IMG/VR virus record: IMGVR_UViG_2744054628_000009
Span: 1-22,665 of that record
From: a virus
Taxonomy: Duplodnaviria; Heunggongvirae; Uroviricota; Caudoviricetes
Reading direction: 5' to 3' (one strand)
Length of the DNA stretch: 22,665 nucleotides
In this document: in pieces, positions 2,776 through 22,665 of the stretch
Layout of the letters: each line of letters starts with the position of its first letter
Position numbering within the stretch: position 1 is the first letter of the stretch
Made by a program: the position numbers and the translations under genes
Notes under the pieces: generated by a model
Told to the model about the DNA's origin: nothing
The model's database searches: none
The model's input: the letters and a program-made list of their open reading frames with translations, nothing else

Positions 2776-2854
2776 TTGCCTGAAATTTATGCCGTTTAAA
2801 ATCATGACGTTAGGAGCACTGTTTTTTAACGATGGCGACAAAATGGCGGCAGCG

Positions 2855-3073
2855 TCAAAGAGAGAGCGCCACCTGTCCTGATTTCATTGGATGCGGCTGA
2901 ACCGGATTTGACTCTTTTGGCGTTGCAATCGAACGAACAAAAGTTTCATGGGTAACAAAAGTATGGCTGCAGTTAATGTTCTGGCACTGGTTGTAACGCT
3001 CTTTGGTCAATGAAGATACCTGAAAACTGCTGCGAGTATGGGCGGCACTTCCACACAGTGGGCAAATCATCAT
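2855..3073 (-). CDS. ogr: Late-gene transcription activator, Ogr/B family zinc finger
   Basis: MMICPLCGSAAHTRSSF...KERYNQCQNINCSHTF... carries the C-x2-C...C-x4-C Ogr zinc-finger pattern, about 72 aa from the internal ATG. The ORF-track start at 3106 is probably an upstream extension. Confidence 0.8.
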   Translation of the reverse strand: MMICPLCGSAAHTRSSFQVSSLTKERYNQCQNINCSHTFVTHETFVRSIATPKESNPVQPHPMKSGQVALSL

Positions 3074-3163
3074 TTTTCGAGTTCTCCCCATTTTTGCTAA
3101 ATTCACAATAATGATACCGCATTATTCCATTTTGAAAACTTAAAAGTTCTCCATTGCGAAGAA

Positions 3164-4264
3164 TCACTCCATTTCGAAATCATCAATCTTCACTTCAAGC
3201 TCCAAACTGGTCGTAAAACCGTTATCCGGGCTGACAGTATGCGTCAGGGTGGTAATAGTCCATTCCGCATCATCTATCGGCTGTTTAAAGCCACTGACTT
3301 TCACTGGCATTTCCGTGTAGAGATCTGCCCGACCTTCTGCCAGTTGTAGCGAGAATGACGCAACACCGCGTTGCAGGCGTTCCCACTGCATTTTCGCTGC
3401 CCGCTCGGCGTTGCCCCGGTTGGCATAGGTGCGATTAAGTACCAGCACGTTTTCATCCGTACCCACCAGGTAATCGCCCTGCTTCGCTTCCGGCTCTTTC
3501 TTCTGCTTCTTAGTCCTGCGCTTACGCTTCACGGCAGTGCTTTCTTTCTTCGCGGGTTCACGGGTATGTAACCAACTGGCAATTACGCCCGTATAGGCTC
3601 CGCGATCTGCCAGGGTAAAGCGGTGACTGTCGCCGTCCTTACGTGTGATAGTGATCACCGGCAGTGGTTTACCAGTGGCGCTTTTGCCCTGTCCCTGCCG
3701 GATGAATAACAGATTGCCATTTTTCACCGACGCGATGGCACCGTACTGGCGCGCCAGCCGCATCAGAAAACTGCCGTCACTCTCATTAGTCTGGTCTATA
3801 TGCTCCACGGGCTTATCCGACAGGTCTTTACCCAGTGCCATCTTCAGCTTGTGACGCGCGGCTATTTCCTTCACCACTTCCCCGACAGTGGTCTTGTGCC
3901 ACGACTTTTCACGGCGGGTATTCAGCGTTTCACGAAAATCAGCACTTCGCGCCCGGATAGTCAGGCGGTCCGGTGCGCCAGTGTGTTCAATCTCGTCCAC
4001 CGTGAATGCCCCTTTCGGGAAAAGCGGCTGCCCCTTCCAGCCCAGCGCCAGCGTAATGACCGCACCACGGCGCGGCAGCACGATTTTTCCGTCGGCGTCG
4101 TCCAGCTCCAGATCAAGCTGGTCCGCTTCAAAGCCCCGATTGTCCGTCAGCGTCAGACTCATCAGGCGATTATCCAGGACAGTAGTGATATCCCTGCCCT
4201 CAATACTGATGCTGAATGCGGGAGTTTTGTTGCCCTTGTTAAGCAGTTCAGAGCTGAAATTCAC
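3164..4264 (-). CDS. D: P2 gpD-like tail protein
   Basis: 366-aa ORF immediately upstream of ogr with an ATGA overlap to gpU, as in P2; sequence recalls gpD. Confidence 0.75.
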   Translation of the reverse strand: MNFSSELLNKGNKTPAFSISIEGRDITTVLDNRLMSLTLTDNRGFEADQLDLELDDADGKIVLPRRGAVITLALGWKGQPLFPKGAFTVDEIEHTGAPDRLTIRARSADFRETLNTRREKSWHKTTVGEVVKEIAARHKLKMALGKDLSDKPVEHIDQTNESDGSFLMRLARQYGAIASVKNGNLLFIRQGQGKSATGKPLPVITITRKDGDSHRFTLADRGAYTGVIASWLHTREPAKKESTAVKRKRRTKKQKKEPEAKQGDYLVGTDENVLVLNRTYANRGNAERAAKMQWERLQRGVASFSLQLAEGRADLYTEMPVKVSGFKQPIDDAEWTITTLTHTVSPDNGFTTSLELEVKIDDFEME

Positions 4265-4746
4265 GACAGCAGCCCTCCCACCGTTTTACTGATATCGCTT
4301 AAAGCAGATGTTGCCGTTTCCTGCAGATTATTCAGTTGCGCACTGAGATCACCGAACATATCGGACAGGGATTCATCCACCCGTTTGAGCGACAGGGTGA
4401 ACTCAATCCGGCGCGGCATACCATCGCGGAAAAACTCCGTTTTAGTCTGATTCAGTCCCTCAATCACATACATGCCGTAAATCGTGCCGCTGCCTTCAAT
4501 CAGGGGCCATGCTTTTCCCTGTTCTGCCATCTGCTCCAGAGCCAGCAACGACAGCCTGCCGCCCGTTATCTCCGGCATAAGAACACCAGAAAGCGTCAGC
4601 ATGTCGTTGTCCGGTCCCAGAAACTGCGTGGACGGACGTCGGTTGACCCGGCTGTTTGCCGCATGTCGCCAGCTGCGTTGATACTGCAGTTCCTGATACG
4701 GCACAGTGCGCAGCATAAACACGTACAATCCCAGCACCATCATCAT
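4261..4746 (-). CDS. U: P2 gpU-like tail protein
   Basis: 161 aa (P2 gpU is about 159 aa); position between T and D; start/stop overlaps with neighbours. Confidence 0.75.
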   Translation of the reverse strand: MMMVLGLYVFMLRTVPYQELQYQRSWRHAANSRVNRRPSTQFLGPDNDMLTLSGVLMPEITGGRLSLLALEQMAEQGKAWPLIEGSGTIYGMYVIEGLNQTKTEFFRDGMPRRIEFTLSLKRVDESLSDMFGDLSAQLNNLQETATSALSDISKTVGGLLS

Positions 4747-5634
4747 GCGTCGTATCCCCCCTGATCGCTGTAGTTACTCCTGGCTTTTGCCTTCAGTCTG
4801 CGCTCACGTTCATCAAGCTGGCGGGCCACCTCCCGCGCAATATCCTGCGCACTTTGTCCTGGCTGCGTCTGAATGATGATCTGCGTCGGTGCCTCAATCC
4901 GGTAAATGGGCGGCACAGTAGCTGCACGACTCACCATCGCTTCACCGCCTTTCGCGGGAAGCGCCAAAGGATGCAACGGTGGAAACTCTGCTGGCGCGGC
5001 AGCAACGCCCATCATTCCGGCAACAACGGCAGCCAGTGCAGCTGTATTTTTCCGGCTGGTCACATTTGCCGGGCCGTTAACAATTTCCGGCCCGTTTTCA
5101 CCGACGATGCCAAACTGCCCGCGCGGGATATACCCGCCGCTGTCATACATCCCCGCAAAGCCATATCCCCATGATGGAAAACCACCCGATGGCATCATCA
5201 CTTTACCGTCTGCATTCACCGTCGCAGGTTGCTGACGCGTCACGCTTTCCGGCAGTTTTGCCTTTGCGGCCTCTTTACTGACAATGCCGAGCTTCTCCAG
5301 CAACCAGGAAACGCCAGATTTCAGGGAGTCCAGCGGATGCGTGACCATATTCAGCCCTTCCGCCAGTGCCTCCCCGAATCGCCGCCCCATTGCCGCTGCG
5401 CTCTGCAGTTCGGCAGAGGTCGACTTAACGGGCGTCAGCAGATCAGTAAACCAGCCCCACAGCGCCTGCACTTTGTCGCCAATCCACTGGAACACGGGCT
5501 TAAGCGGTTCGAACGCTGCACTGATGGGACCTGCCGCCGCTTTGAATCCTTCCACCACGCCACCGAGAAATGCGGTGATGGGTTGCCAGTATTTCCAGAC
5601 AACCAGCGCCACGCCCGCCAGTGCAGTAACCACA
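4743..5634 (-). pseudogene. T: Tape measure protein gpT, C-terminal fragment only
   Basis: About 300 codons of Gly/Ala-rich tape-measure-like sequence ending in frame at the U start. The roughly 500 N-terminal codons expected for P2 gpT are absent. The upstream boundary is a deletion junction near 5635-5645. Confidence 0.65.
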
Positions 5635-5991
5635 AGACCTACCTTCAGCCAGTTGCGGCTTATAGCTTTCCGGGCAGTTGCCCACGGCAATCAATGCCCC
5701 GGACTCATCAAACAAGCCCACTTCACGTATCCACCAACCGCCCTCGTTTTCAGGGATCACCTGTTCGGCAATAATCTGGCTGCTGTTCTGCGGGTCGATA
5801 TAAAGCATATTCAGCGCAGCCCGGCGTTTCTCATTTACCAGTGCCGTCTGCTTTGCGTCCGGCGTTGGCAATACTCCACTGCCATCGCCCACCGCCATAT
5901 GGGTAATTTTTAGCGGCACACCGAGCGCGGCGGCGCTGGCAAGTTTCGCCGCGCCAATATCCGTCAGCAGGGTATAAAATTTTGTGCTCAT
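5635..5991 (-). pseudogene. H: Tail fiber protein gpH, N-terminal fragment (about 116 aa) fused out of frame to the gpT fragment
   Basis: MSTKFYTLLTDIGAAKLASAAALGVPLKITHMAVGDGSG...ESYKPQLAEG matches the remembered gpH N-terminus; after ...LAEG the frame reads Cys/Gly/Arg-rich nonsense to a stop at 5500. Confidence 0.7.
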
Positions 5992-6593
5992 GGATTCACT
6001 CTCATTGTGTCAATAACATGGACCGCCCCGCCTTCATGCGCGGTGCCACCGGAAATAATCGTTTCGTTGATATACGGATAGATCGTGATTTCTTCGCCAA
6101 GATAGCTGGCGGCTCCCACCCAATGCGGGCCGCTGGTCTGCAGATTGATGGACATGCCGATCATGTGGCGGCTACATGGTTTGGCATCGCTTATCAGTCG
6201 CTCAAGTTCCAGATAGGTATCTTCAGTGATGCCCTGGTCCTGCACGCCGATATCCAGGCGAAACGTGCCCGGTGTTTCTCCGGTCTGCCACCACTCAATA
6301 ATGCGGATCAGGAATCCGAACGGCTCCACCACCCGCCGCACGGCACTGGTGGTCCCTTTATGCTGATGAATATAAAAAGCATCCTTCACCACCTGGCGCT
6401 TGACGCTTTCTGTCCAGCCCTCGTCCCAGCGATCCACAGAGAACGCCCAAGCGAGATAAGGCAGGAAACTGACCGGACAGGTTGCCGGATTCCACAAGTC
6501 ACGAAGCGGCACCTGCAGATCAGAAATCCCGCTGCAAGTTTGCGCCAGTCGGCGCTCCAGTGGTGTTGAACCCGGTGGCAGCAGACTATTCAT
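5988..6593 (-). CDS. I: Baseplate protein gpI-like
   Basis: MNSLLPPGSTPLERRL...RDLWNPATCP...LPYLAWAFSVDRWDE... matches the conserved gpI N-terminal motifs; 4-nt overlap with the H start. Confidence 0.75.
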   Translation of the reverse strand: MNSLLPPGSTPLERRLAQTCSGISDLQVPLRDLWNPATCPVSFLPYLAWAFSVDRWDEGWTESVKRQVVKDAFYIHQHKGTTSAVRRVVEPFGFLIRIIEWWQTGETPGTFRLDIGVQDQGITEDTYLELERLISDAKPCSRHMIGMSINLQTSGPHWVGAASYLGEEITIYPYINETIISGGTAHEGGAVHVIDTMRVNP

Positions 6594-6846
6594 CCGTTCC
6601 TCCGTTGGTTACGCTCCACTGCGTACATGATGCCGCCTGTGTTTTGTTCAGGACCACATCCGCCACCGTGCCGTCAGTGCGCATGACACTGCGAAACTCC
6701 GACAGGTCCACATCAGGCCAGAACGGCGTATTTCTGATGATTTCCGCCTGTTCCGGTGCCTGTTCTGGCGCAACAAACTTCATGCTGCTTTCTCCTGAAA
6801 TAGAGGGCGGTGGACGGGGTTTTGATGTGGCAGTGCCTTTCGCCAC
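6586..6846 (-). pseudogene. Remnant: about 40 N-terminal codons of head completion protein gpL joined to a short 3-prime tail (probably the end of gpJ)
   Basis: The IIRNTPFWPDVDLSEFRSVMRTDGTV motif resembles the gpL N-terminus. The ORF is only 86 aa and its stop overlaps the gpI start as the J stop does in P2. All of X, lysis genes, R, S, V, W and most of J are missing between M and I. Confidence 0.4.
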
Positions 6847-6878
6847 CCCGTGCCGCCCGTGCGCGGGGGCACGTTCTG

Positions 6879-7529
6879 TCAGCGGCTGTCATTGCGCAGT
6901 CTGCGCTCCAGCTGCTGTTTGTCTTTTTTCACGCCACAGCGGGGATCAAGCTGTAACGCATGGTTGAGATGATTAAGGGCGGAAGCCGGATTGCTTTCAC
7001 TCAGGACAGCGCCAATCGCTTTATGCAGACGCGCCCGTGACTGGTCCGGCATATCCAGACCGTCTGTCAGCTCCAGCGTCTGCAACAACAGATCGGCATC
7101 AAAGCCGGTGGCGGCAAGCATTGCGCTCTGCGCGGCGTCTGCCATTTCCTCTGCCAGCACGGTCTGCACGTTGCGGTTACCCAGCGGCATCACCCAGCCA
7201 TGACGCAGGGCATGACGCCCGATCTCCAGCGCCCCGGCATAATCTCCGGCATCAATGCGCCACAGCATCACGTACATCAGCACATCATCCTGTTGAGCGC
7301 CTCCGGCAGCCAGGACACCCTCTGCCCAGGCGGCGTACTTCGGCAGCAGCTCCACCTTGATTTCCGCTTTTTTGACCGTGGACTGAACACCCTTGAGACG
7401 GCGGCGGTCTTCCGCCAGTTGCAGCAGCATCAGGTCATAGCCCGATGCGTGGCGAACACTGCCGCCCTCGCGGGCGGCCTGTTCAGCCTGAACGCGCAGG
7501 CGATGCTGCCGTGCGGGACTCAGGCTCAT
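6879..7529 (-). CDS. M: Terminase small (endonuclease) subunit gpM-like
   Basis: MSLSPARQHRLRVQAEQAAREGG...AQQDDVLMYVMLWRIDAGDYAGALEIGRHAL... matches remembered P2 gpM from residue 1; GGAG ribosome-binding site about 7 nt upstream on the minus strand. Confidence 0.75.
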   Translation of the reverse strand: MSLSPARQHRLRVQAEQAAREGGSVRHASGYDLMLLQLAEDRRRLKGVQSTVKKAEIKVELLPKYAAWAEGVLAAGGAQQDDVLMYVMLWRIDAGDYAGALEIGRHALRHGWVMPLGNRNVQTVLAEEMADAAQSAMLAATGFDADLLLQTLELTDGLDMPDQSRARLHKAIGAVLSESNPASALNHLNHALQLDPRCGVKKDKQQLERRLRNDSR

Positions 7530-9015
7530 GGATTACGCTCCGGTTTCGGCTGCGGCGGCGCTGAAATCACCAATCTGGATGTTTTCCAACCGCAATAAAG
7601 GCCCACGCCGTCAGCCGGAAAAGAATGTTTTCACCGATGAGCAGATTGAGAAGCTGGAAGAAATCTTCCATTCCTCCATGTTCAACTACCAGCGCCACTG
7701 GTGGGAAGCCGGAAAAACCAACCGCATCCGCAACCTGCTGAAGTCACGCCAGATCGGCGCGACCTTCTATTTTGCCCGTGAAGCCCTGATTGACGCCCTG
7801 CTTACCGGACGTAACCAGATTTTCCTTTCTGCCAGTAAGGCTCAGGCCCACGTCTTTAAACAATACATCATCGACTTTGCCAAAGAAGTCGAGGTGGAGC
7901 TAAAAGGCGATCCGATGGTGCTTCCTAACGGAGCCACGCTTTACTTCCTCGGCACCAATGCCCGCACGGCCCAGAGTTATCACGGCAACCTGTATCTGGA
8001 TGAATATTTCTGGATACCGAAATTCCAGGAGCTGCGCAAAGTGGCTTCCGGGATGGCTATTCACAAAAAATGGCGACAAACCTATTTTTCCACGCCATCC
8101 AGCCTGACCCACAGTGCTTATCCGTTCTGGTCCGGTGCGCTGTTCAACCGTGGACGCAACAAAGCTGACAAGGTGGACATCGACCTGTCCCACAGCAATC
8201 TGGCCCCCGGCCTGCTGTGCGCAGACGGGCAATACCGCCAGATAGTCACCGTGGAAGATGCGGTGCGCGGCGGCTGTAACCTGTTCGACCTCGACCAGCT
8301 ACGCATGGAGTACAGCCCGGACGAATACCAGAACCTGCTGATGTGCGAGTTCGTGGACGATCTCGCGTCCGTGTTCCCGCTCAGCGAACTGCAGGCGTGC
8401 ATGGTGGACAGCTGGGAAGTCTGGACCGACTTTCATGCACTGGCCCTGCGCCCGTTTGGCTGGCGCGAAGTGTGGATCGGTTATGACCCGGCAAAAGGTA
8501 CGCAGAACGGCGACAGTGCCGGATGCGTGGTGGTGGCTCCGCCAGCCGTGCCGGGTGGTAAGTTCCGCATTCTTGAGCGTCACCAGTGGCGCGGGATGGA
8601 CTTCCGCGCCCAGGCTGACGCCATCAAAAAACTCACCGAACAGTACAACGTGACCTATATCGGTATCGACTCAACCGGCGTTGGTCACGGGGTTTATGAG
8701 AACGTGAAAGCGTTCTTTCCTGCCGTCCGGGAGTTTGTCTACAACCCCAATGTTAAAAACGCCCTGGTACTCAAGGCCTACGACATTATCAGCCACCGCC
8801 GTCTGGAGTTTGACGCCGGGCACACCGACATTGCGCAGTCATTCATGGCAATCCGTCGCGCCACCACCGCCAGCGGCAACCGCCCGACCTATGAAGCCAG
8901 CCGCAGCGAAGAAGCCAGCCACGCCGATCTGGCCTGGGCAACGATGCACGCACTGTTTAACGAACCGCTGCAGGGCGAATCCGCCAATACCAGCAATATT
9001 GTGGAGATTTTTTGA
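7528..9015 (+). CDS. P: Terminase large (ATPase) subunit gpP-like, probably truncated at the 5-prime end
   Basis: Walker-A-like LKSRQIGAT; 4-nt overlap with the Q start. The M start codon abuts this ORF with no room for the divergent promoters or for O and N. The first 20-30 codons of the ORF are probably not native. True start not determined. Confidence 0.65.
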   Translation: MDYAPVSAAAALKSPIWMFSNRNKGPRRQPEKNVFTDEQIEKLEEIFHSSMFNYQRHWWEAGKTNRIRNLLKSRQIGATFYFAREALIDALLTGRNQIFLSASKAQAHVFKQYIIDFAKEVEVELKGDPMVLPNGATLYFLGTNARTAQSYHGNLYLDEYFWIPKFQELRKVASGMAIHKKWRQTYFSTPSSLTHSAYPFWSGALFNRGRNKADKVDIDLSHSNLAPGLLCADGQYRQIVTVEDAVRGGCNLFDLDQLRMEYSPDEYQNLLMCEFVDDLASVFPLSELQACMVDSWEVWTDFHALALRPFGWREVWIGYDPAKGTQNGDSAGCVVVAPPAVPGGKFRILERHQWRGMDFRAQADAIKKLTEQYNVTYIGIDSTGVGHGVYENVKAFFPAVREFVYNPNVKNALVLKAYDIISHRRLEFDAGHTDIAQSFMAIRRATTASGNRPTYEASRSEEASHADLAWATMHALFNEPLQGESANTSNIVEIF

Positions 9016-10040
9016 TGGGAAAGAGTAAGAAAAACCGCGCTGCGGCGACGAATCAGCTCAAGCATAAAAGCCAGACTTCAGCCGAAGCATTCAGCTTTGG
9101 CGATCCCGTTCCTGTTCTGGACCGCCGTGAACTGCTGGACTATGTGGAATGCGTACAGATGGACCGCTGGTATGAGCCGCCCGTCAGCTTTGACGGACTG
9201 GCACGAACCTTCCGCGCTGCCGTGCATCACAGCTCACCGATTGCAGTAAAATGCAACATTCTGACCAGTACCTACATCCCTCACCCGCTGCTCAGCCAGC
9301 AGGCTTTTTCACGTTTTGTGCAGGACTATCTGGTATTTGGTAACGCCTACCTGGAGAAACGCACGAACCGCTTCGGTGAAGTTATCGCCCTTGAGCCTGC
9401 TCTGGCAAAATACACCCGACGCGGGTTAGACCTGGATACCTACTGGTTTGTGCAATACGGTATGACAACCCAGCCGTATCAGTTCACGAAAGGCAGCATT
9501 TTTCATCTGATGGAACCGGACATTAACCAGGAGATCTACGGCCTGCCCGGCTATCTTTCTGCCATTCCGTCCGCCCTGCTCAATGAGTCCGCCACGCTGT
9601 TCCGCCGCAAGTATTACATTAACGGTAGTCATGCAGGCTTCATCATGTACATGACCGATGCTGCGCAGAACCAGGAGGACGTGAACAACCTCCGCAATGC
9701 AATGAAAAGTGCCAAAGGTCCGGGTAACTTCCGCAACCTGTTTATGTACTCGCCTAACGGCAAAAAGGACGGCCTTCAGATCATCCCTTTGTCAGAAGTT
9801 GCGGCGAAGGATGAGTTTCTAAATATCAAGAACGTGAGCCGGGATGACATGATGGCAGCACATCGCGTTCCGCCACAGATGATGGGGATAATGCCTAATA
9901 ATGTTGGGGGATTTGGGGATGTAGAAAAAGCTAGTAAGGTATTTGTGAAAAATGAATTATTACCATTACAAAAAAGAATGAAAGAATTTAATCATTGGAG
10001 CGGTGAAGAAATTATAAAATTCGAGAGATATCAAATTTAG
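9012..10040 (+). CDS. Q: Portal protein gpQ-like
   Basis: 342 aa (P2 gpQ is about 344 aa), immediately downstream of P with an ATGA overlap. Confidence 0.8.
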   Translation: MMGKSKKNRAAATNQLKHKSQTSAEAFSFGDPVPVLDRRELLDYVECVQMDRWYEPPVSFDGLARTFRAAVHHSSPIAVKCNILTSTYIPHPLLSQQAFSRFVQDYLVFGNAYLEKRTNRFGEVIALEPALAKYTRRGLDLDTYWFVQYGMTTQPYQFTKGSIFHLMEPDINQEIYGLPGYLSAIPSALLNESATLFRRKYYINGSHAGFIMYMTDAAQNQEDVNNLRNAMKSAKGPGNFRNLFMYSPNGKKDGLQIIPLSEVAAKDEFLNIKNVSRDDMMAAHRVPPQMMGIMPNNVGGFGDVEKASKVFVKNELLPLQKRMKEFNHWSGEEIIKFERYQI

Positions 10041-10041
10041 C

Positions 10042-10066
10042 AAAGTGCCTCTAAAAGAGGCGCTTT
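10042..10066. terminator. Hairpin between the convergent Q and DprA-like genes (possible bidirectional terminator)
   Basis: aaagtgcctct-aaa-agaggcgcttt: an 11-bp stem with one G-T pair, A-rich on the 5-prime side and T-rich on the 3-prime side. Confidence 0.45.
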
Positions 10067-13093: not shown

Positions 13094-13133
13094 CTTTCCT
13101 CCTATGACACCAAAACAATACTGTATACATAAC

Positions 13134-15660: not shown

Positions 15661-16513
15661 ACACGCACCTCGTACACAGCAGAACTATCCACGCCACGCG
15701 AAGGATCAAATCCCACCCAGCAGCGCGCCCCGGAAACAGCAATGATTTCTGTTGCAGATTTACTCTCGCCAGCCGACACGCCGATGCTGCGTTTTGCCTT
15801 GATGTAGTGGTGAGTGAAATTGCGATACAGCGAACGAATCAGGGATGTGTCACTGTTAGAAACAATGACCGGATGACCTTCAGATGATCGATGTTCAAGA
15901 ACGGATGCCAGGTGATACTGGTCATCCTCAGTGAAGCCATCAGTGTGATAGCCGGAAAACGTACCGTCATAAGGCGGATCGCAATACACCACATCCCCCG
16001 CCTTCAACATCGCCAGCGTTTCATCAAAGCTGGCGCAGATAAACGTTGCTCGCTGGGCTTTTTCTGCAAATTTGCGAATTTCTTTTTCAGGGAAATACGG
16101 ATTTTTATAATTCCCGTAGGGAATGTTGAATGCCCGCTCTTGTTATAGCGACATAACCCACGGTAACCATGACGATTGAGATACAGGAAATATACCGCTT
16201 TCATGAAATCAGTAATTTCAGTGGAGTAATTAAACTCCTGCCTTATGTTGTAATAAGCCACCTCCCTGTTTGCTTCCTCAAATAAAGCTCTGGCACGAGA
16301 TATAAACGCCTCGCAATCAGCAGCAACCTTTTTATAGAGGTTGATTAAATCAGGATTAATATCCGCAACAAGATAGCTGGGGTAATCCGTCTCTATCATC
16401 ACAGCACAAGAACCCGCGAAAGGTTCAACCAGTCGCGGGCCAGCAGGAAGGTATTTTTTCAGTTCTGGCATAATGGCGGTTTTATTACCCGCCCATTTCA
16501 GGATGGTGCTCAT
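15657..16513 (-). pseudogene. dam: DNA adenine methyltransferase (Dam-like) with a frameshift near 16129-16131
   Basis: N-terminal ORF has motif I ([11 protein letters not shown]) and ...[17 protein letters not shown]; the -1 frame continues [38 protein letters not shown]...VVYCDPPY (motif IV). One base missing in a short homopolymer. Confidence 0.8.
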
Positions 16514-16737
16514 ACAGCACCTCCGTTGTAATGTTTGCCTTTCAGCTCTGCGATTTCCTGACAGGTAATGCAAAGCTGCACACCCGGAATGGCGCGACGT
16601 CGTGCTGGCGGAATTGGTGCTTCACACTCAATGCAAAGCACGCGGGATACGCCCGGCGTTTTGGCGCGGGCAGCACGGATATGACGCTGGCGTTCTTCTT
16701 CAACGCGCTGCTGTACGAGATCCATTGCATCAGCCAT
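16510..16737 (-). CDS. TraR/DksA-family C4 zinc-finger protein
   Basis: C-x2-C ... C-x2-C pattern ([26 protein letters not shown]); AGGAG ribosome-binding site; ATGA overlaps with both neighbours. Confidence 0.7.
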
Positions 16738-16970
16738 CAGTGGATCTCCTGCGCTTCGTTCTGGATTGCTTCAGCAGTCACACGCAGCAGTTCTGCCGCT
16801 TCGACGTGGTTTAGCTGGCGGGATGTGATATGACACGCTAGGCTATCAAGGCGAGCTGCCATTGCTTCAGCCCTTGCCCGGCGTTCTTCCAGACGAGCCT
16901 CTGTCAGTAAAATATTAAGCCCTGCATCATCCGGTCCGGTTTTAGTCGTGAGGGTTTCAATATTACGCAT
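16737..16970 (-). CDS. Hypothetical early-operon protein
   Basis: AGGAGA ribosome-binding site 7 nt before ATG 16970; stop overlaps the start of the TraR-like gene. Confidence 0.5.
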   Translation of the reverse strand: MRNIETLTTKTGPDDAGLNILLTEARLEERRARAEAMAARLDSLACHITSRQLNHVEAAELLRVTAEAIQNEAQEIH

Positions 16971-17037
16971 AATCAATTCTCCTGAATTTAGATAAAGGGA
17001 TGCCTGGCGGGTTTACGCCATGAATTTCATTAGTTGG

Positions 17038-17379
17038 TTAATTCGGCATGGTTAGCCGTCTGGGAAATAAGCTCACCACTGCACGAAAATGATTCATTGC
17101 TTTAATCAGCTCCCGCTTTTCGTCAGTGGTCAGCTCATTAATGCTGATGCTATGACGTTCAGCTGGAATTTTTGCCATAAAGAATATGGCAGCCAGTGCC
17201 CGTTTATTTTGTTCATTATTGATATCCCGTGGATCACGCATATCTTTAATAAACCGCTCAAGCTCTGACTCAATATTCAGGCCAAAAACTTTCGCTCTTA
17301 ATTCCGCAATATGATTAAGTCCATTCAGGCGTTCACCGGGGCTTAATGGAACAGTCGCCGCAGCGCCTTCAATAGCCAT
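17038..17379 (-). CDS. Hypothetical early-operon protein (113 aa)
   Basis: GGGGGAA ribosome-binding site 5 nt upstream of ATG 17379; lies in the cII-to-A early operon. Confidence 0.5.
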   Translation of the reverse strand: MAIEGAAATVPLSPGERLNGLNHIAELRAKVFGLNIESELERFIKDMRDPRDINNEQNKRALAAIFFMAKIPAERHSISINELTTDEKRELIKAMNHFRAVVSLFPRRLTMPN

Positions 17380-17543
17380 TGGTTCCCCCGTTTTTTCGTT
17401 GATAGTTCTGCCAGCAATTCATCTTGTGAACGGCACGGATGCCAGCGTTTACCATCCTCACCCATGATCCAGCCGTGACCGTAGTGCATTGCCGGACTTT
17501 GTTTTACCAGCAGCGATGCAAATGATGGTTCTTTCGTCAGCAT
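17343..17543 (-). CDS. Hypothetical early-operon protein (66 aa)
   Basis: GAGGTG ribosome-binding site overlapping the cII stop; ATG at 17543; the longer ORF-track version (start 17573) overlaps cII. Confidence 0.5.
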   Translation of the reverse strand: MLTKEPSFASLLVKQSPAMHYGHGWIMGEDGKRWHPCRSQDELLAELSTKKRGNQWLLKALRRLFH

Positions 17544-17550
17544 AAGCACC

Positions 17551-18066
17551 TCACAGCAAACCGAATGAAGCACCGAGGCCAGTCACGGTATCAACTGCAC
17601 TCGCCATCGCAGGATTAGCCTGTAAACGGGCCTGCAATGAAACAGCAGCCAGCGCCATCAGTCGTGTAACAGAGTTAATGCTGCTGATCGCATCACGACG
17701 GCCTGCACTGGTTTTTACATCGCCAGAAACCGCACCTGCCGCGACACGCCCTATCTCTGCAGTTGCACTCATGACGTAATGCGGCAGTTTCTCTTTTGCC
17801 ACCTCATTAATCGGTACACATGGCAGGCAGTGAATCTGTGCCAGAAAGCCATCTACCAGCGTTGAATCTTCAGTCAGATCGGTAAGCAGCCAGATTTCTG
17901 GCGCATTGAGCTGATGCGGTTGATCTGGGTTGAGTTTGTTTCGCAGAGTCTGGACATTCATTCCTGCACGTTCTGCCAGCTTCGCCATATTGTGACGAAG
18001 TGCAAAAGCTCTACAGGCTTCATCAAAATGCGGGTGTTTGGAAACTTGGTAATCAAACATGGTCAA
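17551..18066 (-). CDS. cII: Phage 186 CII-like lysogeny-establishment activator
   Basis: [47 protein letters not shown]... closely matches remembered 186 CII; 171 aa versus about 169 aa. Confidence 0.8.
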
Positions 18067-18092
18067 TGCCTCTGATGTATTTCAGAATCGAA

Positions 18093-18314
18093 CTAATTAA
18101 GGTTTAGATTGCATTCTGAAAGCGCATCAACGGTCATGGCTGCTATGTTGATCATCACTTTTTCGCGTTTTTTATCTTTCCGCAGACGGTGACGGATAAG
18201 ACGTCCATCAGCCAACATGTCATTGATAGTATCGATGGATAGCCCTGTCAGCTCGCTATAACGTTCAATAGTCACATGAGGCGTGGTAAGAGTGATTGAA
18301 ATGTTAGGTTTCAT
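18093..18314 (-). CDS. apl: Apl-like excisionase / transcriptional regulator
   Basis: 73-aa basic protein that is the first gene of the lytic operon, divergent from cI, as in phage 186. Confidence 0.65.
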
Positions 18315-18386
18315 GATGCAACATTCCTCGTTTAATGTTGATTAATCAGGACGAATACGGATCGTTTGTATTTTGTGAACATCATA

Positions 18387-18415
18387 AACATACGATCGCA
18401 TAGTGAAATCGTCAA
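18387..18415 (-). promoter_or_regulatory. Candidate lytic promoter pR driving apl-cII
   Basis: On the minus strand: TTGACG (18410-18415), 17-nt spacer, TATGTT (18387-18392). Flanked by inverted gtgaac (18379-18384) / gttcac (18424-18429), a possible operator. Confidence 0.5.
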
Positions 18416-18439
18416 GACAAAAGTTCACTTGGAGTGACC

Positions 18440-19009
18440 ATGAATTTGGAGAAAGGCGGACGAGGCGCTATAGAGCGCATGGTAGAAGCATATGGCTTCA
18501 AGACTCGACAGGCGTTGTGCGATCACTTAGGAATCTCTAAAAGTACTCTCGCCACACGCTATATGCGTGACTCATTCCCTGCTGAATGGGTAATCCAGTG
18601 CGCACTTGAAACGGGCGCCTCGCTTAACTGGCTCACGACCGGACATGGTTCAAAGCAAACTTCAGGTAATACAAATACTATGGAAGTCGTTAAATATGTA
18701 TTATCTGATGGAACCTTGCAGGAAGATGGTTTTTATATTTTCGATAAAGAATTTCTACCATCTACGCTCAAAAATCCGTTTGTAATCACCGATAACAATT
18801 CCGTTTTTATTTGCGATAAAGAGTTTAACGATATTCGTGACGGCAAATGGGTAATAAGTATTGATGCCGAAGTAACAATCCGCGATATCACTCGTTTACC
18901 TGGTGGAAGAATCTTAGTTGAAGGTGGAAATAGGGCTTTCGAATGTAAAAAAGAAGAAATTGAAATTATTGGAAAAATTATAAGCATAACAGTTAAGTAC
19001 TTTGAGTAA
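18440..19009 (+). CDS. cI: 186-type CI immunity repressor
   Basis: N-terminal HTH motif AIERMVEAYGFKTRQALCDHLGISKSTLATRYMRDSFPAEWVIQCALETG plus a CI C-terminal-type domain. GGAG at 18431-18434 precedes the ATG at 18440; an alternative in-frame GTG is at 18434. Confidence 0.75.
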   Translation: MNLEKGGRGAIERMVEAYGFKTRQALCDHLGISKSTLATRYMRDSFPAEWVIQCALETGASLNWLTTGHGSKQTSGNTNTMEVVKYVLSDGTLQEDGFYIFDKEFLPSTLKNPFVITDNNSVFICDKEFNDIRDGKWVISIDAEVTIRDITRLPGGRILVEGGNRAFECKKEEIEIIGKIISITVKYFE

Positions 19010-19059
19010 TATAGGAATGTTTTTATGCTTGGTAAAGCATTTGTTGTGGTGTAAAAAAT

Positions 19060-19983
19060 ATGTCAACTCAAAAATTAAAATTTAGCCATATCAAAAACGA
19101 TCTGAAAGCAATAGTTATGCAGAATCGTGGAGGGCAAAAAGTTATTGAGCGTATACTCCTAGCCTATGGCTTCAAGTCACGACAGGCATTATGTAATCAT
19201 CTAGGTATTTCCCAAAGTACTATGGCCAACAGATATGCACGTAATACCTTTCCTGCAGATTGGGTTGTTATATGTTCCATAGAAACAGGAGCATCAATTG
19301 AATGGTTAGTTCTTGGTTCAGATACTGCTCCTTCATCAAAGCAATATTCTGAAAAACATGCCGTTAATGGCCTTTGCAATGAAGTATACATTCCCACTAT
19401 AAAGTTCGATAATGAAAAACTCATGAATTTTAACCGAGGGGGTAAGGCAACAATAGAACGAATTGTCGAGGCTTACGGTTACAAAACGCGCCAAGCATTA
19501 GCTGATCACCTAGGTATTTCAAAAAGCACATTAGCCACACGATACATGCGTGACATTTTTCCTGCAGACTGGGTTTTGCAGTGTGCAATAGAAACGGGCC
19601 ATTCTATTGAATGGATTTCATTTGGTACAGGAGAAATGAAAAACGCAAAAAATAAAGATACTTTAACATTAGTGAAAAAAGTATTAATCAATGGCAAGTT
19701 AATAAATGATGGCTCATATTTATTTGACCCATGCTTTCTACCTTCCAATTTAAAAAATGCATTCGTAGTATCTACCGAAGACTCTGAATTAATATGTGAA
19801 ATAGGTTTTAAAGATGTACATGATGGTAAGTGGCTAGTAAATATTGATGGAGAGAATTCATTTAGAATGATAACTCGACTACCTAAAGGACGAGTTTATA
19901 TTTCATCCCAAAATCACTCTTTTGAATGTTCGCTTACAGACATTGAGTTTATTGCAAAAGTTATTATAAGTTGTTTACATTAA
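19060..19983 (+). CDS. CI-repressor paralog with two tandem N-terminal HTH domains and a CI-like C-terminal domain
   Basis: Two HTH copies (about aa 22-85 and 127-190) each resemble the cI N-terminus; the second is roughly 85% identical by eye. The C-terminal part aligns with the cI C-terminus (LPSNLKN..., DGKWL.NID..., ITRLP.GR). AT-rich. Confidence 0.65.
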   Translation: MSTQKLKFSHIKNDLKAIVMQNRGGQKVIERILLAYGFKSRQALCNHLGISQSTMANRYARNTFPADWVVICSIETGASIEWLVLGSDTAPSSKQYSEKHAVNGLCNEVYIPTIKFDNEKLMNFNRGGKATIERIVEAYGYKTRQALADHLGISKSTLATRYMRDIFPADWVLQCAIETGHSIEWISFGTGEMKNAKNKDTLTLVKKVLINGKLINDGSYLFDPCFLPSNLKNAFVVSTEDSELICEIGFKDVHDGKWLVNIDGENSFRMITRLPKGRVYISSQNHSFECSLTDIEFIAKVIISCLH

Positions 19984-20008
19984 GTAAATTTTTCATGGAG
20001 ACTTCATA

Positions 20009-21526
20009 GTGAAATGTGGTGATTGTAATTGGAACTGGGATGAAGAAACTACCTTTATATTAGACGACGAAGAGGAAATTCTTTCCAAAGACAAACTTAA
20101 TCGGAGACACTATGCAGAATATCTATATTTTTATCTTAAGGAAAAGGGGAAAAAGAACAACACGGTAATCAACCTTAATGCAGAATGGGGAGCTGGTAAA
20201 AGTTTTTTCATAAAGAGATTTTATAACTCAATAAAAGATGCACACCCATGCGTTTACATTGATGCCTGGAAGCAAGACTTTTCTGATGATGCATTTTTAA
20301 CCCTTTTTTCTTCTTTGTCACAACAATTGCAAACATATGCAGGAAAACTTGATGCTCGATTGATACAAAGCGGCCATGCTATCGGACGCTTTACAAAAGG
20401 TGTTCTACCTGAAATCATATCTGGCCTAATCAAGACTTATGCAGGAGTAGATAACGTAGGTGATATAGCCAAAGAAGCCTCATTAATAATGCTGAAGGAA
20501 CACCAGGAAAAACTGAAGAGCATTAAGGTATTAAAAAAAGAACTAACGTTATGGTCTAGGTTGGCATATGAAAATAGTTTTTCATATCCTATATTTATCT
20601 TTATAGATGAATTAGACAGATGCAGGCCAGATTATGCAATTTCTCTTTTAGAGATTGTTAAACATATATTCGATATTAAAAATTTTGTCTTTATTATTGC
20701 TACTGACACAGATCAATTACAACATTCAATCAAGAATGTTTACGGTAATGATTTTTCCGCAAATGACTATTTAGGCCGTTTTTTTCATAGAAGATTTACT
20801 TTAAAACAACCTGAACTTAAAGATTTAATTAATGGTGTTGTTGGTGATTATATTGGTACCGATTTTGAAAATATCACATCAAAAACATACCCACTAACAG
20901 CAACATTAGAAGACTTTTCAATAAATATTTCCAACGTATTTGAAGCATTTGGGTTAAATCTAAGAGACTCAATCCGAAATACTGAAAGGTTAATAGACAT
21001 TCTTAAATCTGATTTAGTCAAAAAGAAAGTAGATTATATTTTTATAATTTCGCTAATGATTATATATGATAAGGATCGTCAAATTATAGATGGACTAATT
21101 GGTCGAAGAAATGCAGCACAACGTTTCACTGATTCGATAAAGCAAAGCTCCAATTTAAAAGGTGTTTCTCAAGCCATCCTTGAATTAAATCTTGATACAA
21201 ATCAGCAAAGAATAGGTGTCAATTATATCTATAGAACGGCGAGCAGTAGATTATTCATCTCACAGATCGAGCCCAAAATAAATTTAACATTAATAAATTA
21301 CTTAGATGTTGCATTGTATTTTATTAATAATATAAACATGCTTAAATCAAGTATAAAAAACAATGGGCAAAATTCACTAATGATTATATCTCAACAAGGC
21401 CCTATTGATGGTGATACAGCTATAAAGTATTTGCAAGGAGCCCTTATAGAGAATGGTCTGAATACATCTTTTTATGCCTTACATAATTACATTGAATTAA
21501 TTGAACTGGCCACATCATTTGATTAA
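20009..21526 (+). CDS. KAP-family P-loop NTPase (PifA-like)
   Basis: Walker A GAGKSFF (about aa 60) and Walker B IFIFIDELDRCRP (about aa 196), in the form typical of KAP NTPases; GTG start with GGAG 8 nt upstream; strongly AT-rich, 505 aa. Confidence 0.65.
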   Translation: MKCGDCNWNWDEETTFILDDEEEILSKDKLNRRHYAEYLYFYLKEKGKKNNTVINLNAEWGAGKSFFIKRFYNSIKDAHPCVYIDAWKQDFSDDAFLTLFSSLSQQLQTYAGKLDARLIQSGHAIGRFTKGVLPEIISGLIKTYAGVDNVGDIAKEASLIMLKEHQEKLKSIKVLKKELTLWSRLAYENSFSYPIFIFIDELDRCRPDYAISLLEIVKHIFDIKNFVFIIATDTDQLQHSIKNVYGNDFSANDYLGRFFHRRFTLKQPELKDLINGVVGDYIGTDFENITSKTYPLTATLEDFSINISNVFEAFGLNLRDSIRNTERLIDILKSDLVKKKVDYIFIISLMIIYDKDRQIIDGLIGRRNAAQRFTDSIKQSSNLKGVSQAILELNLDTNQQRIGVNYIYRTASSRLFISQIEPKINLTLINYLDVALYFINNINMLKSSIKNNGQNSLMIISQQGPIDGDTAIKYLQGALIENGLNTSFYALHNYIELIELATSFD

Positions 21527-21588
21527 AAGCATTGTTTGAATAAACTAAACCATACATTGACCACTGGTCAAACATACAGTTAAATTTA

Positions 21589-21612
21589 GCCCTCTGATAT
21601 GAGGGCTTTATT
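21589..21612 (+). terminator. Rho-independent terminator ending at the int start codon
   Basis: gccctc-tgatat-gagggc followed by tttatt, then ATG at 21613. Confidence 0.6.
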
Positions 21613-22665
21613 ATGGCAGTACGAAAACTCACCACAGGAAAATGGCTTTGCGAATGTTACCCCGCCGGACGTAGTGGGCGTCGTGTGCGTAAACAATTCG
21701 CCACCAAAGGCGAAGCACTGGCTTTTGAGCGTCACACGATGGAAGAAACCGAAGCAAAGCCCTGGCTGGGTGAATCAGTGGATCGTCGAACACTGAAAGA
21801 CGTGGTTGAGCTATGGTTCAAACTACATGGTAAATCTCTGACTGCTGGGCAGCATGTCTATGACAAATTGCTGCTGATGGTTGACGCTCTGGGCAATCCC
21901 CTTGCAACTGATCTAACCTCTAAAATGTTTGCCCACTATCGAGATAAACGCCTGACAGGTGAGATCTACTTCAGTGAGAAATGGAAGAAAGGAGCAAGCC
22001 CGGTCACCATTAACCTGGAGCAAAGCTATCTAAGTAGTGTTTTTAGCGAACTATCCCGCCTGGGCGAATGGTCGTATCCGAACCCACTGGAGAACATGCG
22101 AAAATTCACCATCGCAGAAAAAGAGATGGCATGGCTTACCCATGAGCAGATTGTTGAATTACTAGCTGATTGCAAACGTCAGGACCCAATTCTGGCACTG
22201 GTAGTTAAGATATGCTTAAGCACAGGCGCACGCTGGCGAGAAGCCGTAAATCTTACCCGCTCACAGGTGACCAAATACCGAATTACCTTTGTAAGAACGA
22301 AGGGGAAGAAAAACAGAAGCATCCCTATCAGTAAAGAGCTTTACGAAGAGATCATGGCGCTTGATGGGTTCAATTTCTTCACAGACTGCTATTTTCAATT
22401 TTTATCCGTGATGGAAAAAACGTCTATCGTGCTCCCTCGCGGTCAACTCACACACGTTCTGCGCCATACGTTTGCGGCGCACTTCATGATGTCGGGTGGA
22501 AACATTCTGGCCTTACAAAAAATTCTCGGACACCACGATATAAAAATGACTATGCGTTACGCACATCTGGCACCGGATCATCTGGAAACGGCGCTCCGTT
22601 TCAATCCTCTGGCAACGCTGCCAAGTGGCGACAAAGTGGCGGCAGCGGTTGGCATTACCCCGTAA
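21613..22665 (+). CDS. int: Tyrosine integrase (P2/186 Int family)
   Basis: 350 aa; C-terminal catalytic region ...HVLRHTFAAHFMMSGGNILALQKILGHHDIKMTMRYAHL with the conserved R/H/R/Y arrangement; sits at the end of the prophage opposite ogr. Confidence 0.85.
   Translation: MAVRKLTTGKWLCECYPAGRSGRRVRKQFATKGEALAFERHTMEETEAKPWLGESVDRRTLKDVVELWFKLHGKSLTAGQHVYDKLLLMVDALGNPLATDLTSKMFAHYRDKRLTGEIYFSEKWKKGASPVTINLEQSYLSSVFSELSRLGEWSYPNPLENMRKFTIAEKEMAWLTHEQIVELLADCKRQDPILALVVKICLSTGARWREAVNLTRSQVTKYRITFVRTKGKKNRSIPISKELYEEIMALDGFNFFTDCYFQFLSVMEKTSIVLPRGQLTHVLRHTFAAHFMMSGGNILALQKILGHHDIKMTMRYAHLAPDHLETALRFNPLATLPSGDKVAAAVGITP

Follow-up and report, generated by a model that had tools for sequence, protein, structure and literature searches.

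Prophage at the ybjL-rcdA locus

The DNA analyzed here, a stretch of 22,665 nucleotides referred to as the window, is identical to contig LSBS01000223.1 of GCA_001641955.1. Besides grxA, ybjM, and ybjL, it contains a P2-family prophage whose switch is of the 186 type. The prophage is inserted between ybjL and rcdA, adjoins ybjL, and occupies positions 2764–22665. Its left boundary is marked by one copy of the att core.

2764–2777: att core, left prophage boundary; ATGGGTTTTTTGTT, a 14-nucleotide direct repeat flanking the prophage in L001 (E. coli PCP06171) and L003

This core falls at the site annotated as attR in phage 4LV2017. The right end of the window is exactly the stop codon of int, and the second att copy lies ~75 nucleotides beyond, outside the window. 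A preliminary description of this DNA had identified a prophage starting at 2776; the prophage is borne out, but that position is the end of the att core. The same description called the element grounded, a term that the literature reserves for prophages with a mutated recombinase or mutated att sites (PMC6379469). With int and the left att core both intact, the element lies outside this definition and is defective rather than grounded.

The element is an ordinary P2/186-type E. coli prophage. Its gene order and switch logic are those of Escherichia phage 186 (Eganvirus, Peduoviridae; NC_001317): int and cI are oriented toward apl, cII, and fil, with A coming after these; a DinI-like Tum homologue is encoded in a LexA-box operon beside cos; and an ogr/B-type late activator adjoins att. 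Unlike 186, which has its att in a tRNA-Ile gene and a single 146-amino acid tum ORF, the window element lies at ybjL-rcdA and has two ORFs (62 and 77 amino acids) in place of tum. It also has ShosTA between Q and cos and CI-307 and KAP between cI and int, and ~15 kb of late genes is deleted. Klebsiella phage 4LV2017 (Elveevirus) is 94% identical over 65% of the window. However, it is full length (~35 kb) with all capsid, tail, and lysis genes, its two-HTH CI is its only repressor, and a retron-type cassette occupies its Q-proximal hotspot. Intact relatives at the ybjL-rcdA locus (e.g., E. coli PCP06171 and SOI121) are likewise ~35 kb and have all capsid, tail, and lysis genes. PCP06171 carries the same cargo cassettes and has 98–99% nucleotide identity to the window over all retained parts. 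Matches over at least 80% of the window occur in 36 genomes; the 30 listed ones all span 35–39.5 kb, as expected for a full-length prophage.

Three deletions in the late region

The intact relative PCP06171 (L001) served as the reference for mapping deletions. Relative to it, the window has three internal deletions (8643–16385, 17413–22257, and 23186–25517 in L001 coordinates) that total 14,920 bp, with overlaps of 3–5 nucleotides at the junctions.

2855–3073, minus strand: ogr/B-type late activator, 72 amino acids, full length (Pfam Ogr_Delta in gene tables)
3164–4264, minus strand: gpD tail protein, full length, without indels relative to L001 (dN/dS 0.028)
4261–4746, minus strand: gpU tail protein, full length by comparison with L001
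4743–5641, minus strand: T' remnant, C-terminal 299 codons of the 1025-amino acid tape-measure gene
5639–5641: junction J1 (T'/H'), microhomology CTA; deletion of L001 8643–16385, 7,743 bp
5639–5991, minus strand: H' remnant, N-terminal 117 codons of tail fibre H
5988–6593, minus strand: gpI baseplate protein, full length by comparison with L001
6586–6665, minus strand: J' remnant, last 80 nucleotides of baseplate J
6661–6665: junction J2 (J'/L'), 5-nucleotide overlap; deletion of L001 17413–22257, 4,845 bp
6661–6783, minus strand: L' remnant, first 41 codons of head-completion gene L
6879–7529, minus strand: gpM small terminase subunit, full length by comparison with L001
7533–7588, minus strand: N' remnant, last 18 codons of the major capsid gene
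7586–7588: junction J3 (N'/P'), 3-nucleotide overlap; deletion of L001 23186–25517, 2,332 bp
7586–9015, plus strand: P' remnant, large terminase without its first 112 codons, the Terminase_5 domain included in the loss
9015–10040, plus strand: gpQ portal, full length by comparison with L001

The first deletion runs from most of T to most of H, removing the N-terminal two thirds of T and the distal two thirds of H. The second removes most of J, W, V, S, R, the lysis genes (LysC/B/A, lysozyme, and holin), X, and most of L. The third removes the capsid genes N and O and the first 337 nucleotides of terminase P. Intact P has Terminase_5, 6N, and 6C domains, and P' has 6N and 6C only. Also lost relative to L001 are E, E', FII, FI, an invertase, and fibre genes. 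The preliminary description held that capsid, lysis, and most tail genes are gone. The losses of N, O, and the lysis genes agree with this, but morphogenesis genes were not cleanly lost: ogr, D, U, I, M, and Q are full length and free of indels relative to intact relatives, and pieces of T, H, J, L, N, and P were left behind. The exact gpQ protein is indexed in 1,083 blocks, mostly in intact-looking prophages. The T' remnant is annotated as a pseudogene in AHB21.

H' reads across J1 to form a 163-amino acid chimeric ORF (5500–5991). AHB21 has exactly the same J1, and the J1 fusion ORF is indexed in 54 blocks of a large collection. J2 and J3 gave no matches in other complete E. coli genomes (5,426 complete genomes), and a chimeric 495-amino acid ORF at J3 was found in GCA_001641955.1 only. 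Among the contigs read, J2 and J3 were otherwise seen only in ERR1541496 (L012), which has the same architecture as the window.

Regulatory, early, and integration genes

The right-hand part of the prophage contains the following genes and sites, apart from the cargo.

12133–12468, plus strand: DUF8087 ORF, 111 amino acids, a backbone gene (gene tables)
12661–12894, minus strand: DinI-like ORF, 77 amino acids, counterpart of the C-terminal half of 186 Tum (Pfam DinI, 6.6e-23)
12905–13093, minus strand: 62-amino acid ORF, first gene of the SOS operon, in the position of the Tum N-terminal half
13136–13151: LexA box, TACTGTAAATATAAACAGT, the sole perfect CTGT-N8-ACAG in the window
13246–15660, minus strand: gpA rolling-circle replication initiator, 804 amino acids, full length (35% identity to 186 A)
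15657–16513, minus strand: dam-type adenine methylase, frameshifted into two ORFs by loss of 1 bp (AAA to AA) near 16129
16510–16737, minus strand: TraR/DksA zinc-finger ORF (comparison with L001)
16737–16970, minus strand: DUF2732 ORF (comparison with L001)
17038–17379, minus strand: DUF5347 ORF (comparison with L001)
17343–17543, minus strand: fil, filamentation protein family (Pfam Phage_186_Fil)
17551–18060, minus strand: cII (72% identity to 186 CII)
18093–18314, minus strand: apl/cox-like ORF, 73 amino acids, assigned mainly by position
18440–19009, plus strand: cI immunity repressor, 189 amino acids (Pfam Phage_CI_repr and Phage_CI_C; 31% identity to 186 CI)
21613–22665, plus strand: int tyrosine integrase, 350 amino acids, full length (56% identity to 186 Int)

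The DinI-like ORF has 41% identity to Tum residues 71–145. The likeness of the 62-amino acid ORF to the Tum N-terminus is by eye only, as tblastn found no similarity. The LexA box is kept in intact relatives, in a position equivalent to p95/LexA of phage 186, and an ori-like sequence lies within A at about 13620–13690. The apl-like ORF has no Pfam match and only weak N-terminal similarity to 186 Apl.

We found, in agreement with the preliminary description, that cI, the apl-like ORF, cII, int, A, the LexA-box operon, and both cargo loci are intact, with lengths equal to those in L001 and no indels; this is also the case for fil. The methylase, which had been listed as retained, is instead split. 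As dam is intact (285 amino acids) in AHB21, L008, L013, L014, and the L012 contig, the frameshift in the window could be either a private mutation or an error of the assembly.

Cargo cassettes

Two cassettes, ShosTA and CI-307 with KAP, constitute the cargo, the former near cos.

10065–11039, minus strand: ShosA, DprA-like antitoxin/sensor, 324 amino acids (Pfam DNA_processg_A, 1.4e-60; PADLOC ShosA, 2.8e-70)
11029–11604, minus strand: ShosT, PRTase-like toxin, 191 amino acids (PADLOC ShosT, 3.6e-14; weak Pribosyltran match)
11735–11753, minus strand: cos cohesive-end site, GGCGTGGCGGGGATACGAG, first 13 nucleotides identical to annotated 186 cos
19060–19983, plus strand: second CI-type repressor (CI-307), 307 amino acids, two HTH domains
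20009–21526, plus strand: KAP P-loop NTPase, 505 amino acids (Pfam KAP_NTPase, 1.3e-45; PADLOC PDC-S20, 7.7e-78)

The PADLOC matches of ShosA, ShosT, and KAP mark the retained cargo as defence-type genes. Both cassettes occupy known P2 hotspots, one at gpA-gpQ next to cos and the other at the integrase-primase position (PMC9122126); cos itself sits in a conserved noncoding block at the hotspot boundary. ShosA has no mismatches to L001 and corresponds to WP_001324531, which appears with its neighbors in the hotspot table of Rousset et al. 2022 (PMC9122126). In the tested APEC O1 system, by contrast, DprA is only 36% identical to the window ShosA, and the PRTase partner in the window is much shorter. 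An identical 191-amino acid ShosT ORF is called in many genomes. CI-307 has 57% identity to the 189-amino acid cI product and 61% to the sole CI of phage 4LV2017. The KAP gene has a local GC content of ~0.29–0.35.

Sister architectures of the clone

At least seven deletion architectures occur in the clone that shares J1. The window and its sister variants differ by only 0–3 substitutions per 11–19 kb, and the decay is therefore very recent. Four of the seven architectures (AHB21, L008/L013, L011, and L015) lack ShosTA, cos, and the SOS operon, and their A gene is either truncated or gone; L011 and L015 have lost dam as well. These losses within the same clone weigh against the proposal that the loss pattern reflects a benefit of the cargo to the host. 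All sister architectures in which the segment from apl through cI, CI-307, and KAP to int can be seen have kept it, even the 7-kb remnant L015; the sampling of variants was partly biased in that they were found through the J1 ORF or through the KAP protein itself. This constancy could be explained by repressor dependence or by chance.

Of the 12 defective architectures seen at this locus or in this family, 11 lack the lysis cassette, as do five of six lineages; the defective relative L018 retains lysis genes. The clone's secondary deletions nest around L001 19315–22050 and could all derive from one first lysis deletion, in which case the loss of lysis genes would not necessarily be convergent. 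In three lineages, the left breakpoints fall within 22 nucleotides of one another, and the clone has accumulated ~11 deletion events versus at most three substitutions.

Retention of cargo during decay

There is little to suggest that the cargo was selectively kept. Values of dN/dS are as low in remnants (0.014 for P') as in intact genes, and so reflect the history before decay. Too little time has passed since the decay for it to reveal selection. The exact cargo proteins, ShosA among them, are mostly found in intact-looking prophages, which points to conservation from circulating phage and not domestication. What stands of the preliminary interpretation is the defence-type cargo and the constant right-hand block; selection for cargo, SOS operon, methylase, and A is not supported.

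The region is probably a P2-family prophage with 186-type regulation that integrated at the ybjL-rcdA att site and very recently became defective through stepwise deletions by illegitimate recombination. It is doubtful that it is a domesticated prophage, in which host-level selection preserves the defence cargo and the methylase along with immunity and the SOS module and leaves useless morphogenesis genes to decay. Such domestication has been raised as a possibility for defective P2 elements (PMC13586616) and is consistent with the full-length defence-type cargo, with the right-hand block common to all sister architectures with a visible end, and with the location of all three window deletions in the late block (p~0.045 under a random-placement null, a post hoc and borderline value). 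However, the dam frameshift and the losses in four of the seven architectures argue against it, and 0–3 substitutions leave no time for purifying selection to act or be detected. Intact circulating prophages carry identical cargo, and six late genes without plausible host benefit are intact as well. An independent decayed prophage at the same site, 730V1, has both dam and the cI-int slot disrupted.

Neutral deletional decay, with the pattern due to chance and the 63% share of the genome held by late genes, is distinctly unlikely. The same borderline value is compatible with it, as are the sparing of the right 5 kb by ~10 endpoints (p~0.21, by arithmetic on deletion coordinates), the free striking of early and cargo genes by sister-variant deletions, and the lysis genes of L018. 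The near-universal absence of the lysis cassette speaks against it, and the excess of deletions over substitutions suggests enrichment by selection or a locally raised deletion rate; the clustered left breakpoints indicate that placement was not uniform. It is very improbable that J2, J3, and the frameshifts are assembly artefacts and that decay has gone less far in the real prophage. The sequence does come from a draft contig, and comparison with AHB21 shows two single-base deletions in short A runs but no substitutions, as is typical of homopolymer error. However, an independent complete genome and many read sets confirm J1, and the complete J1, J2, and J3 architecture is reproduced with no mismatches in the independent assembly of ERR1541496.

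Judging from gene content, the recently defective prophage should be incapable of capsid and tail assembly, DNA packaging, and cell lysis. It keeps its lysogenic operon (cI, then CI-307, KAP NTPase, and int), its early operon (the apl-like ORF, cII, fil, and subsequent genes to A), the LexA-controlled Tum-like operon, cos, and ShosTA, so immunity and cargo expression should persist. SOS induction might still lead to derepression, excision, and replication, with no productive outcome. Once tail genes were gone through J1, leftover lytic functions would have been only a liability, and their deletion tolerated or favored, and the repressor end would have been needed for as long as fil, A, and other harmful early genes persisted. 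The cargo would then have been kept passively, because it adjoins these regions and too little time has elapsed. We infer the counterselection of lytic genes, the repressor dependence, and the residual inducibility; repressor dependence and the purging of lytic functions would explain the same pattern without a benefit from the cargo.

This is an ordinary case of a known phenomenon, as defective P2 elements with unchanged defence genes have been reported (PMC13586616); unlike in those elements, the decay of the window prophage is traceable within a single clone. The cryptic prophages of E. coli K-12 (DLP12, e14, Rac, Qin, and CPZ-55) are similarly nonproductive remnants that still have accessory genes. 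However, they are old, widely shared, and immobilized by the definition of PMC6379469, whereas the window remnant is young, clone restricted, and keeps int and the left att core. A constant right-hand block of cI, CI-307, KAP, and int is also predicted by selection for that cargo.

Identity and insertion site of the prophage

The host genes grxA, ybjM, and ybjL occupy positions 1–2619 of the window, and the prophage begins after these. The window matches contig LSBS01000223.1 of the draft assembly GCA_001641955.1 over 19,015 nt with 0 mismatches and 0 gaps. The insertion site lies between ybjL and rcdA. In related genomes the element is bordered by a 14-nt direct repeat, ATGGGTTTTTTGTT, one copy of which is located at 2764–2777 of the window; the second copy lies ~75 nt past the int stop codon, so just beyond the window end. 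No tRNA was found at the att site.

The prophage belongs to the P2-like Peduoviridae, which are recognized by a collinear gene set in the order ogr-D-U-T followed further on by Q/P divergent from O-N-M-L, along with A, a tyrosine integrase, and cos beside Q. This assignment was made by alignment to annotated intact relatives and phage 186, by Pfam domains, and by a cos match, and the P2 gene set in the window is incomplete because of three deletions. The nearest classified phage is Klebsiella phage 4LV2017 (Peduoviridae; 94% identity, 65% of the window). The regulatory layout resembles that of phage 186, to whose proteins those of the window are 72% (CII), 56% (Int), 35% (A), and 31% (CI) identical.

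Three deletions and what remains

Alignment to the intact prophage of E. coli PCP06171 (~34.9 kb; hereafter L001, which supplies the coordinates for deletions) divides the window prophage into four collinear blocks with three deletions between them.

Deletions in the window prophage relative to L001
Deletion 1, L001 8643–16385 (7,743 bp; leaves the T'-H' fusion, junction 1): N-terminal two thirds of T, E, E', FII, FI, invertase, fiber-assembly genes, distal two thirds of H
Deletion 2, L001 17413–22257 (4,845 bp; leaves the J'-L' fusion, junction 2): most of J, W, V, S, R, LysC, LysB, LysA, lysozyme, holin, X, most of L
Deletion 3, L001 23186–25517 (2,332 bp; leaves the N'-P' fusion, junction 3): N, O, first 337 nt of P

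The sequences overlap by 3–5 nt at the junctions, as would be expected of illegitimate recombination. The result is a defective (cryptic) prophage that lacks N, O, FI, FII, E, V, W, S, R, holin, and lysozyme and has truncated P, T, H, J, and L. Gene-by-gene comparison with L001 revealed unchanged lengths and no indels in the late genes ogr, D, U, I, M, and Q, and likewise in ShosA, the DUF8087 ORF, the DinI-like ORF, a 62-aa ORF, A, TraR, DUF2732, DUF5347, fil, cII, the apl-like ORF, cI, CI-307, KAP, and int.

Two genes carry frameshifts. The methylase gene dam is divided into two ORFs by a 1-bp deletion (AAA to AA, ~16129), and the host gene grxA (glutaredoxin 1; 1–257) has a 1-bp deletion (A4 to A3, ~149) that cuts its product to 55 aa. 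All sister sequences have an intact grxA (85 aa) and a 285-aa dam, both lesions being private to the window's assembly. Because the window otherwise has no substitutions over 14 kb in comparison to the complete genome AHB21, sequencing error may account for both homopolymer changes; for grxA, the lesion would be either such an error or a private pseudogene.

The pattern of loss and retention set out in the preliminary description largely stands, except for two points. The methylase, described as retained, is frameshifted in the window itself. The term "grounded," which denotes a prophage whose excision is blocked by mutation of an att site or the recombinase (Ramisetty and Sudhakari 2019, PMC6379469), does not fit either, since neither int nor the left att core is damaged: int is full length and differs from that of an intact relative by 1 nt. 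The right att copy, which falls beyond the window, is intact in the sister genome AHB21.

Regulatory switch, SOS operon, and cos

In a 186-type switch, cI diverges from apl-cII-fil, and an operon repressed by LexA encodes the antirepressor Tum. Homologs of phage 186 cI, cII, fil, and int were found. A 73-aa ORF opposite cI is called apl-like chiefly from its location; its match to 186 Apl is weak and limited to the N-terminus, and it has no match in Pfam. The sole perfect LexA box in the window (13136–13151) is upstream of the operon that encodes the 62-aa and DinI-like ORFs, corresponds in location to p95 of phage 186, and is kept in intact relatives. Whereas tum of phage 186 is a single 146-aa ORF, the window prophage and its intact relatives have two ORFs in different frames (12661–13093). 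The DinI-like ORF (77 aa) is 41% identical to the DinI-like half of 186 Tum. The 62-aa ORF, located where the N-terminal half of Tum would be, has no significant similarity to that half. No sigma-70 promoter was detected by a strict scan. An apparent 1-bp insertion at 13112, in the stretch that links the LexA box to the SOS operon, was considered as a lesion and dismissed as a PCP06171 polymorphism, since CFSAN061772 agrees with the window in length.

The cos site is kept (11735–11753). It was located by comparison with the annotated cos of phage 186, after a search with a P2 cos motif, GGCGAGGCGGGGAAAGCAC, had produced no match with up to 3 mismatches.

Two cargo loci in known hotspots

Defense hotspots of P2-like phages have already been described (PMC9122126, PMC13586616). 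The first cargo locus is located between the portal gene and cos, in the gpA-gpQ hotspot (PMC9122126), and consists of an adjacent pair of genes of the ShosTA type, DprA-like (SLOG) ShosA and phosphoribosyltransferase (PRTase)-like ShosT, which overlap by 11 nt. ShosA is matched by PADLOC (2.8e-70) and Pfam DNA_processg_A (1.4e-60), and ShosT by PADLOC (3.6e-14), with a PRTase Pfam match below the curated cut-off. The accession of the window's DprA appears with the same neighbors in the hotspot table of PMC9122126, and a DprA-PRTase system tested in that study protects against T7 and lambda. The tested system is a distant homolog with a much longer PRTase, and its equation with ShosTA of the window was dropped, as the DprA proteins are just 36% identical.

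At least 80% of the region 10041–12660 is present in 9 of 5,426 complete genomes. This count understates the frequency of ShosTA, as the query took in variable backbone, and a reading of ShosTA as rare was set aside; in a larger collection, 1,345 indexed blocks contain exactly this ShosA protein. Among the matches listed, ShosA is located beside complete capsid and lysis modules in 10 of 10 places, one of which (L018) has lost fiber and baseplate genes. The 191-aa ShosT ORF (window 11029–11861 region; L001 28961–29793) is unannotated in the PCP06171 RefSeq record and uncalled in LSBS01000223.1. A 90-aa ORF (11589–11861) is called in its place and is probably spurious, since it spans the hotspot boundary and cos.

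The second cargo locus is between cI and int, a minor P2 hotspot (PMC13586616), and encodes CI-307 (307 aa) and a KAP-family P-loop NTPase (505 aa). CI-307 (19060–19983) has two HTH domains, and its gene directly follows that of the resident repressor within the lysogenic operon. Its identity is 57% with the resident CI and 61% with the only CI of Klebsiella phage 4LV2017, and it could provide cross-immunity to 4LV2017-type phages or regulate the KAP NTPase. The latter is matched by PADLOC PDC-S20 (7.7e-78), which PADLOC lists as a candidate defense system, and by Pfam KAP_NTPase (1.3e-45); no papers naming PDC-S20 were found. The KAP NTPase region (20009–21526) has a GC content of ~0.29–0.35 as compared to ~0.50–0.58 in the phage backbone, which suggests that the cassette was acquired recently from a foreign source. 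At least 80% of the CI-307/KAP region is present in 17 of the 5,426 complete genomes, and both cargo cassettes are variable in the population.

Deletion variants within a single clone

Thirty-six complete genomes cover at least 80% of the window, and the 30 listed among these all span 35–39.5 kb, as expected for a full-length prophage. Neither junction 2 nor junction 3 occurs in another of the 5,426 complete genomes, and junction 1 occurs in AHB21 only. In the larger collection, 54 indexed blocks contain the chimeric ORF formed at junction 1, and its carriers fall into several architectures.

Secondary deletions in variants of the junction-1 clone (L001 coordinates)
V1, window and assembly ERR1541496 (L012): 17413–22257 and 23186–25517
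V2a, AHB21 (L003): 17997–33170
V2b, L008 and L013: 17066–32311
V3, L009: 18687–25713
V4, L010: 19315–22050 and 22582–22982
V5, L011: the V3 deletion, 27654–32379, and 33088–35653
V6, L015, found through the exact KAP protein: 6499–34316

V6 lacks junction 1 and was placed in the clone by sequence identity (1 mismatch in 16.7 kb compared to AHB21) and shared locus. Pairwise differences among the loci amount to 0–3 substitutions per 11–19 kb, from which we infer, at commonly cited E. coli substitution rates, a divergence time between decades and, at most, a few centuries. ShosTA, cos, and the SOS operon have been lost and A has been deleted or truncated in V2a, V2b, V5, and V6, and dam has been lost in V5 and V6. 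In this set of variants, whose sampling was partly conditioned on the junction-1 ORF or KAP, the apl-cI-CI307-KAP-int block is kept wherever that end is visible.

The variants (L003 and L008–L016) have accumulated ~11 deletion events versus at most 3 substitutions per 11–19 kb, an excess that reflects either an unusually high deletion rate or strong enrichment. In V4, the portal gene is split (240 and 108 aa; L010 1913–2936) and M has a 401-bp internal deletion (L010 6757–7005), which shows continuing small-scale decay.

Selective retention versus passive carriage

Retention of immunity, SOS, methylase, and defense functions had been ascribed to selection. The population comparison speaks against this for ShosTA, the SOS operon, A, and dam: these are dispensable within the same clone, and dam is broken in the window as well. 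The persistence of the cI-KAP-int end is what selection for that cargo would also predict. For most of the genes named there is little to support selective retention, which is conjectural for the rest, and the sequence conservation of the cargo is that of a circulating intact phage.

Domestication in Bobay's sense is said to involve a defective state that has long been vertically inherited and retained genes that are under purifying selection after inactivation. The window prophage does not qualify as domesticated in this sense: junctions 2 and 3 are in no other complete genome, and retained genes have been lost in sisters. Post-inactivation dN/dS is not computable because there are so few substitutions among clone members. 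Relative to PCP06171, dN/dS is 0.01–0.18 in remnants and 0.00–0.05 in intact late genes, with early and cargo genes having too few substitutions (0–5) to score. These values are uninformative regarding decay; they record pre-decay history only, because the divergence is older than the decay, and the remnants look as constrained as the intact genes. Random placement of the three observed deletions put all of them inside the late block with p = 0.045, a borderline and post hoc value, and by our own arithmetic ~10 right-hand endpoints would all spare the final 5 kb with a probability of ~0.21.

Two features recur across the variants: the lysis block goes missing, and the repressor end stays in place. 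We favor, as simpler, an account in which lytic genes are purged and the repressor is needed. Junction 1, by removing tail genes, would have made the prophage unable to spread and its lytic genes merely harmful, and deletions of lytic genes would then have been tolerated or favored. Loss of the repressor would have been barred for as long as fil, A, and other early genes were present, and the cargo would have come along passively. A reservation is that the clone's secondary deletions are nested around L001 19315–22050, and could therefore have arisen from one first event. A more elaborate reading, which we consider improbable, takes the clone as a time series of domestication, in which an SOS-inducible, tail-less prophage, starting with a break at a deletion-prone tape-measure site, loses its lysis block over and over in independent events, and decay stops before the lysogenic operon, with CI-307, a second repressor whose immunity type differs, and KAP as the selected payload (cross-immunity to 4LV2017-type phages and abortive defense).

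Defective P2 elements with unchanged defense genes have been described, with domestication posed as an open question (PMC13586616). The window is a further example of a defective P2-like prophage that keeps defense hotspots rather than a new kind of element, and as a young, clone-restricted case of a documented phenomenon it matters little by itself. Of modest value is the availability, in public assemblies, of one prophage in at least seven deletion states within a single near-identical clone. Combined with a whole-genome phylogeny, this deletion series could reveal in what order and how fast a prophage decays. It could likewise tell whether lysis genes are lost repeatedly and distinguish selection from constraint at the repressor and cargo end, a question left open by PMC13586616.

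Independently decayed relatives and a breakpoint cluster

Five further members of the same prophage family have decayed independently.

Independently decayed relatives
730V1: two deletions plus insertions of IS1 (dam) and IS5 (cI-int slot)
CFSAN061772: one deletion, T to holin
LP50-1 (L031): deletion of J through O, tail genes still present
LR134296 (L035): deletion of T through O
L018: fiber and baseplate genes deleted, lysis and capsid genes kept

The lysis block has been lost in 11 of 12 defective architectures and in 5 of 6 lineages; a stronger statement, that all defective relatives lack lysis genes, was dropped because of L018. Left breakpoints in the tape-measure gene T fall within 22 nt of one another, at L001 8642 in the junction-1 clone, 8663 in LR134296, and 8664 in 730V1. 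Each is located right after an ACCTA motif, with 2–3 nt of microhomology and a different right-hand partner. The lineages are distinct, since the T remnants differ by 3–4.5% in sequence. The break in CFSAN061772 is 317 nt further on (L001 8980).

A pseudo-origin for the A protein at the T cluster was considered and rejected: the match to the 186 ori core (9 of 11) lies on the other strand and is no better than chance, and deletion endpoints within A do not coincide with ori-like sequence. There was no significant hairpin at the T hotspot (z = -1.2). One end of the deletion in L018 (L018 19662–19670; L001 13780–19309) adjoins the invertase gene close to the presumed inversion crossover site, the other is at the V-S accessory-gene slot, and these endpoint positions suggest an invertase- or hotspot-mediated deletion.
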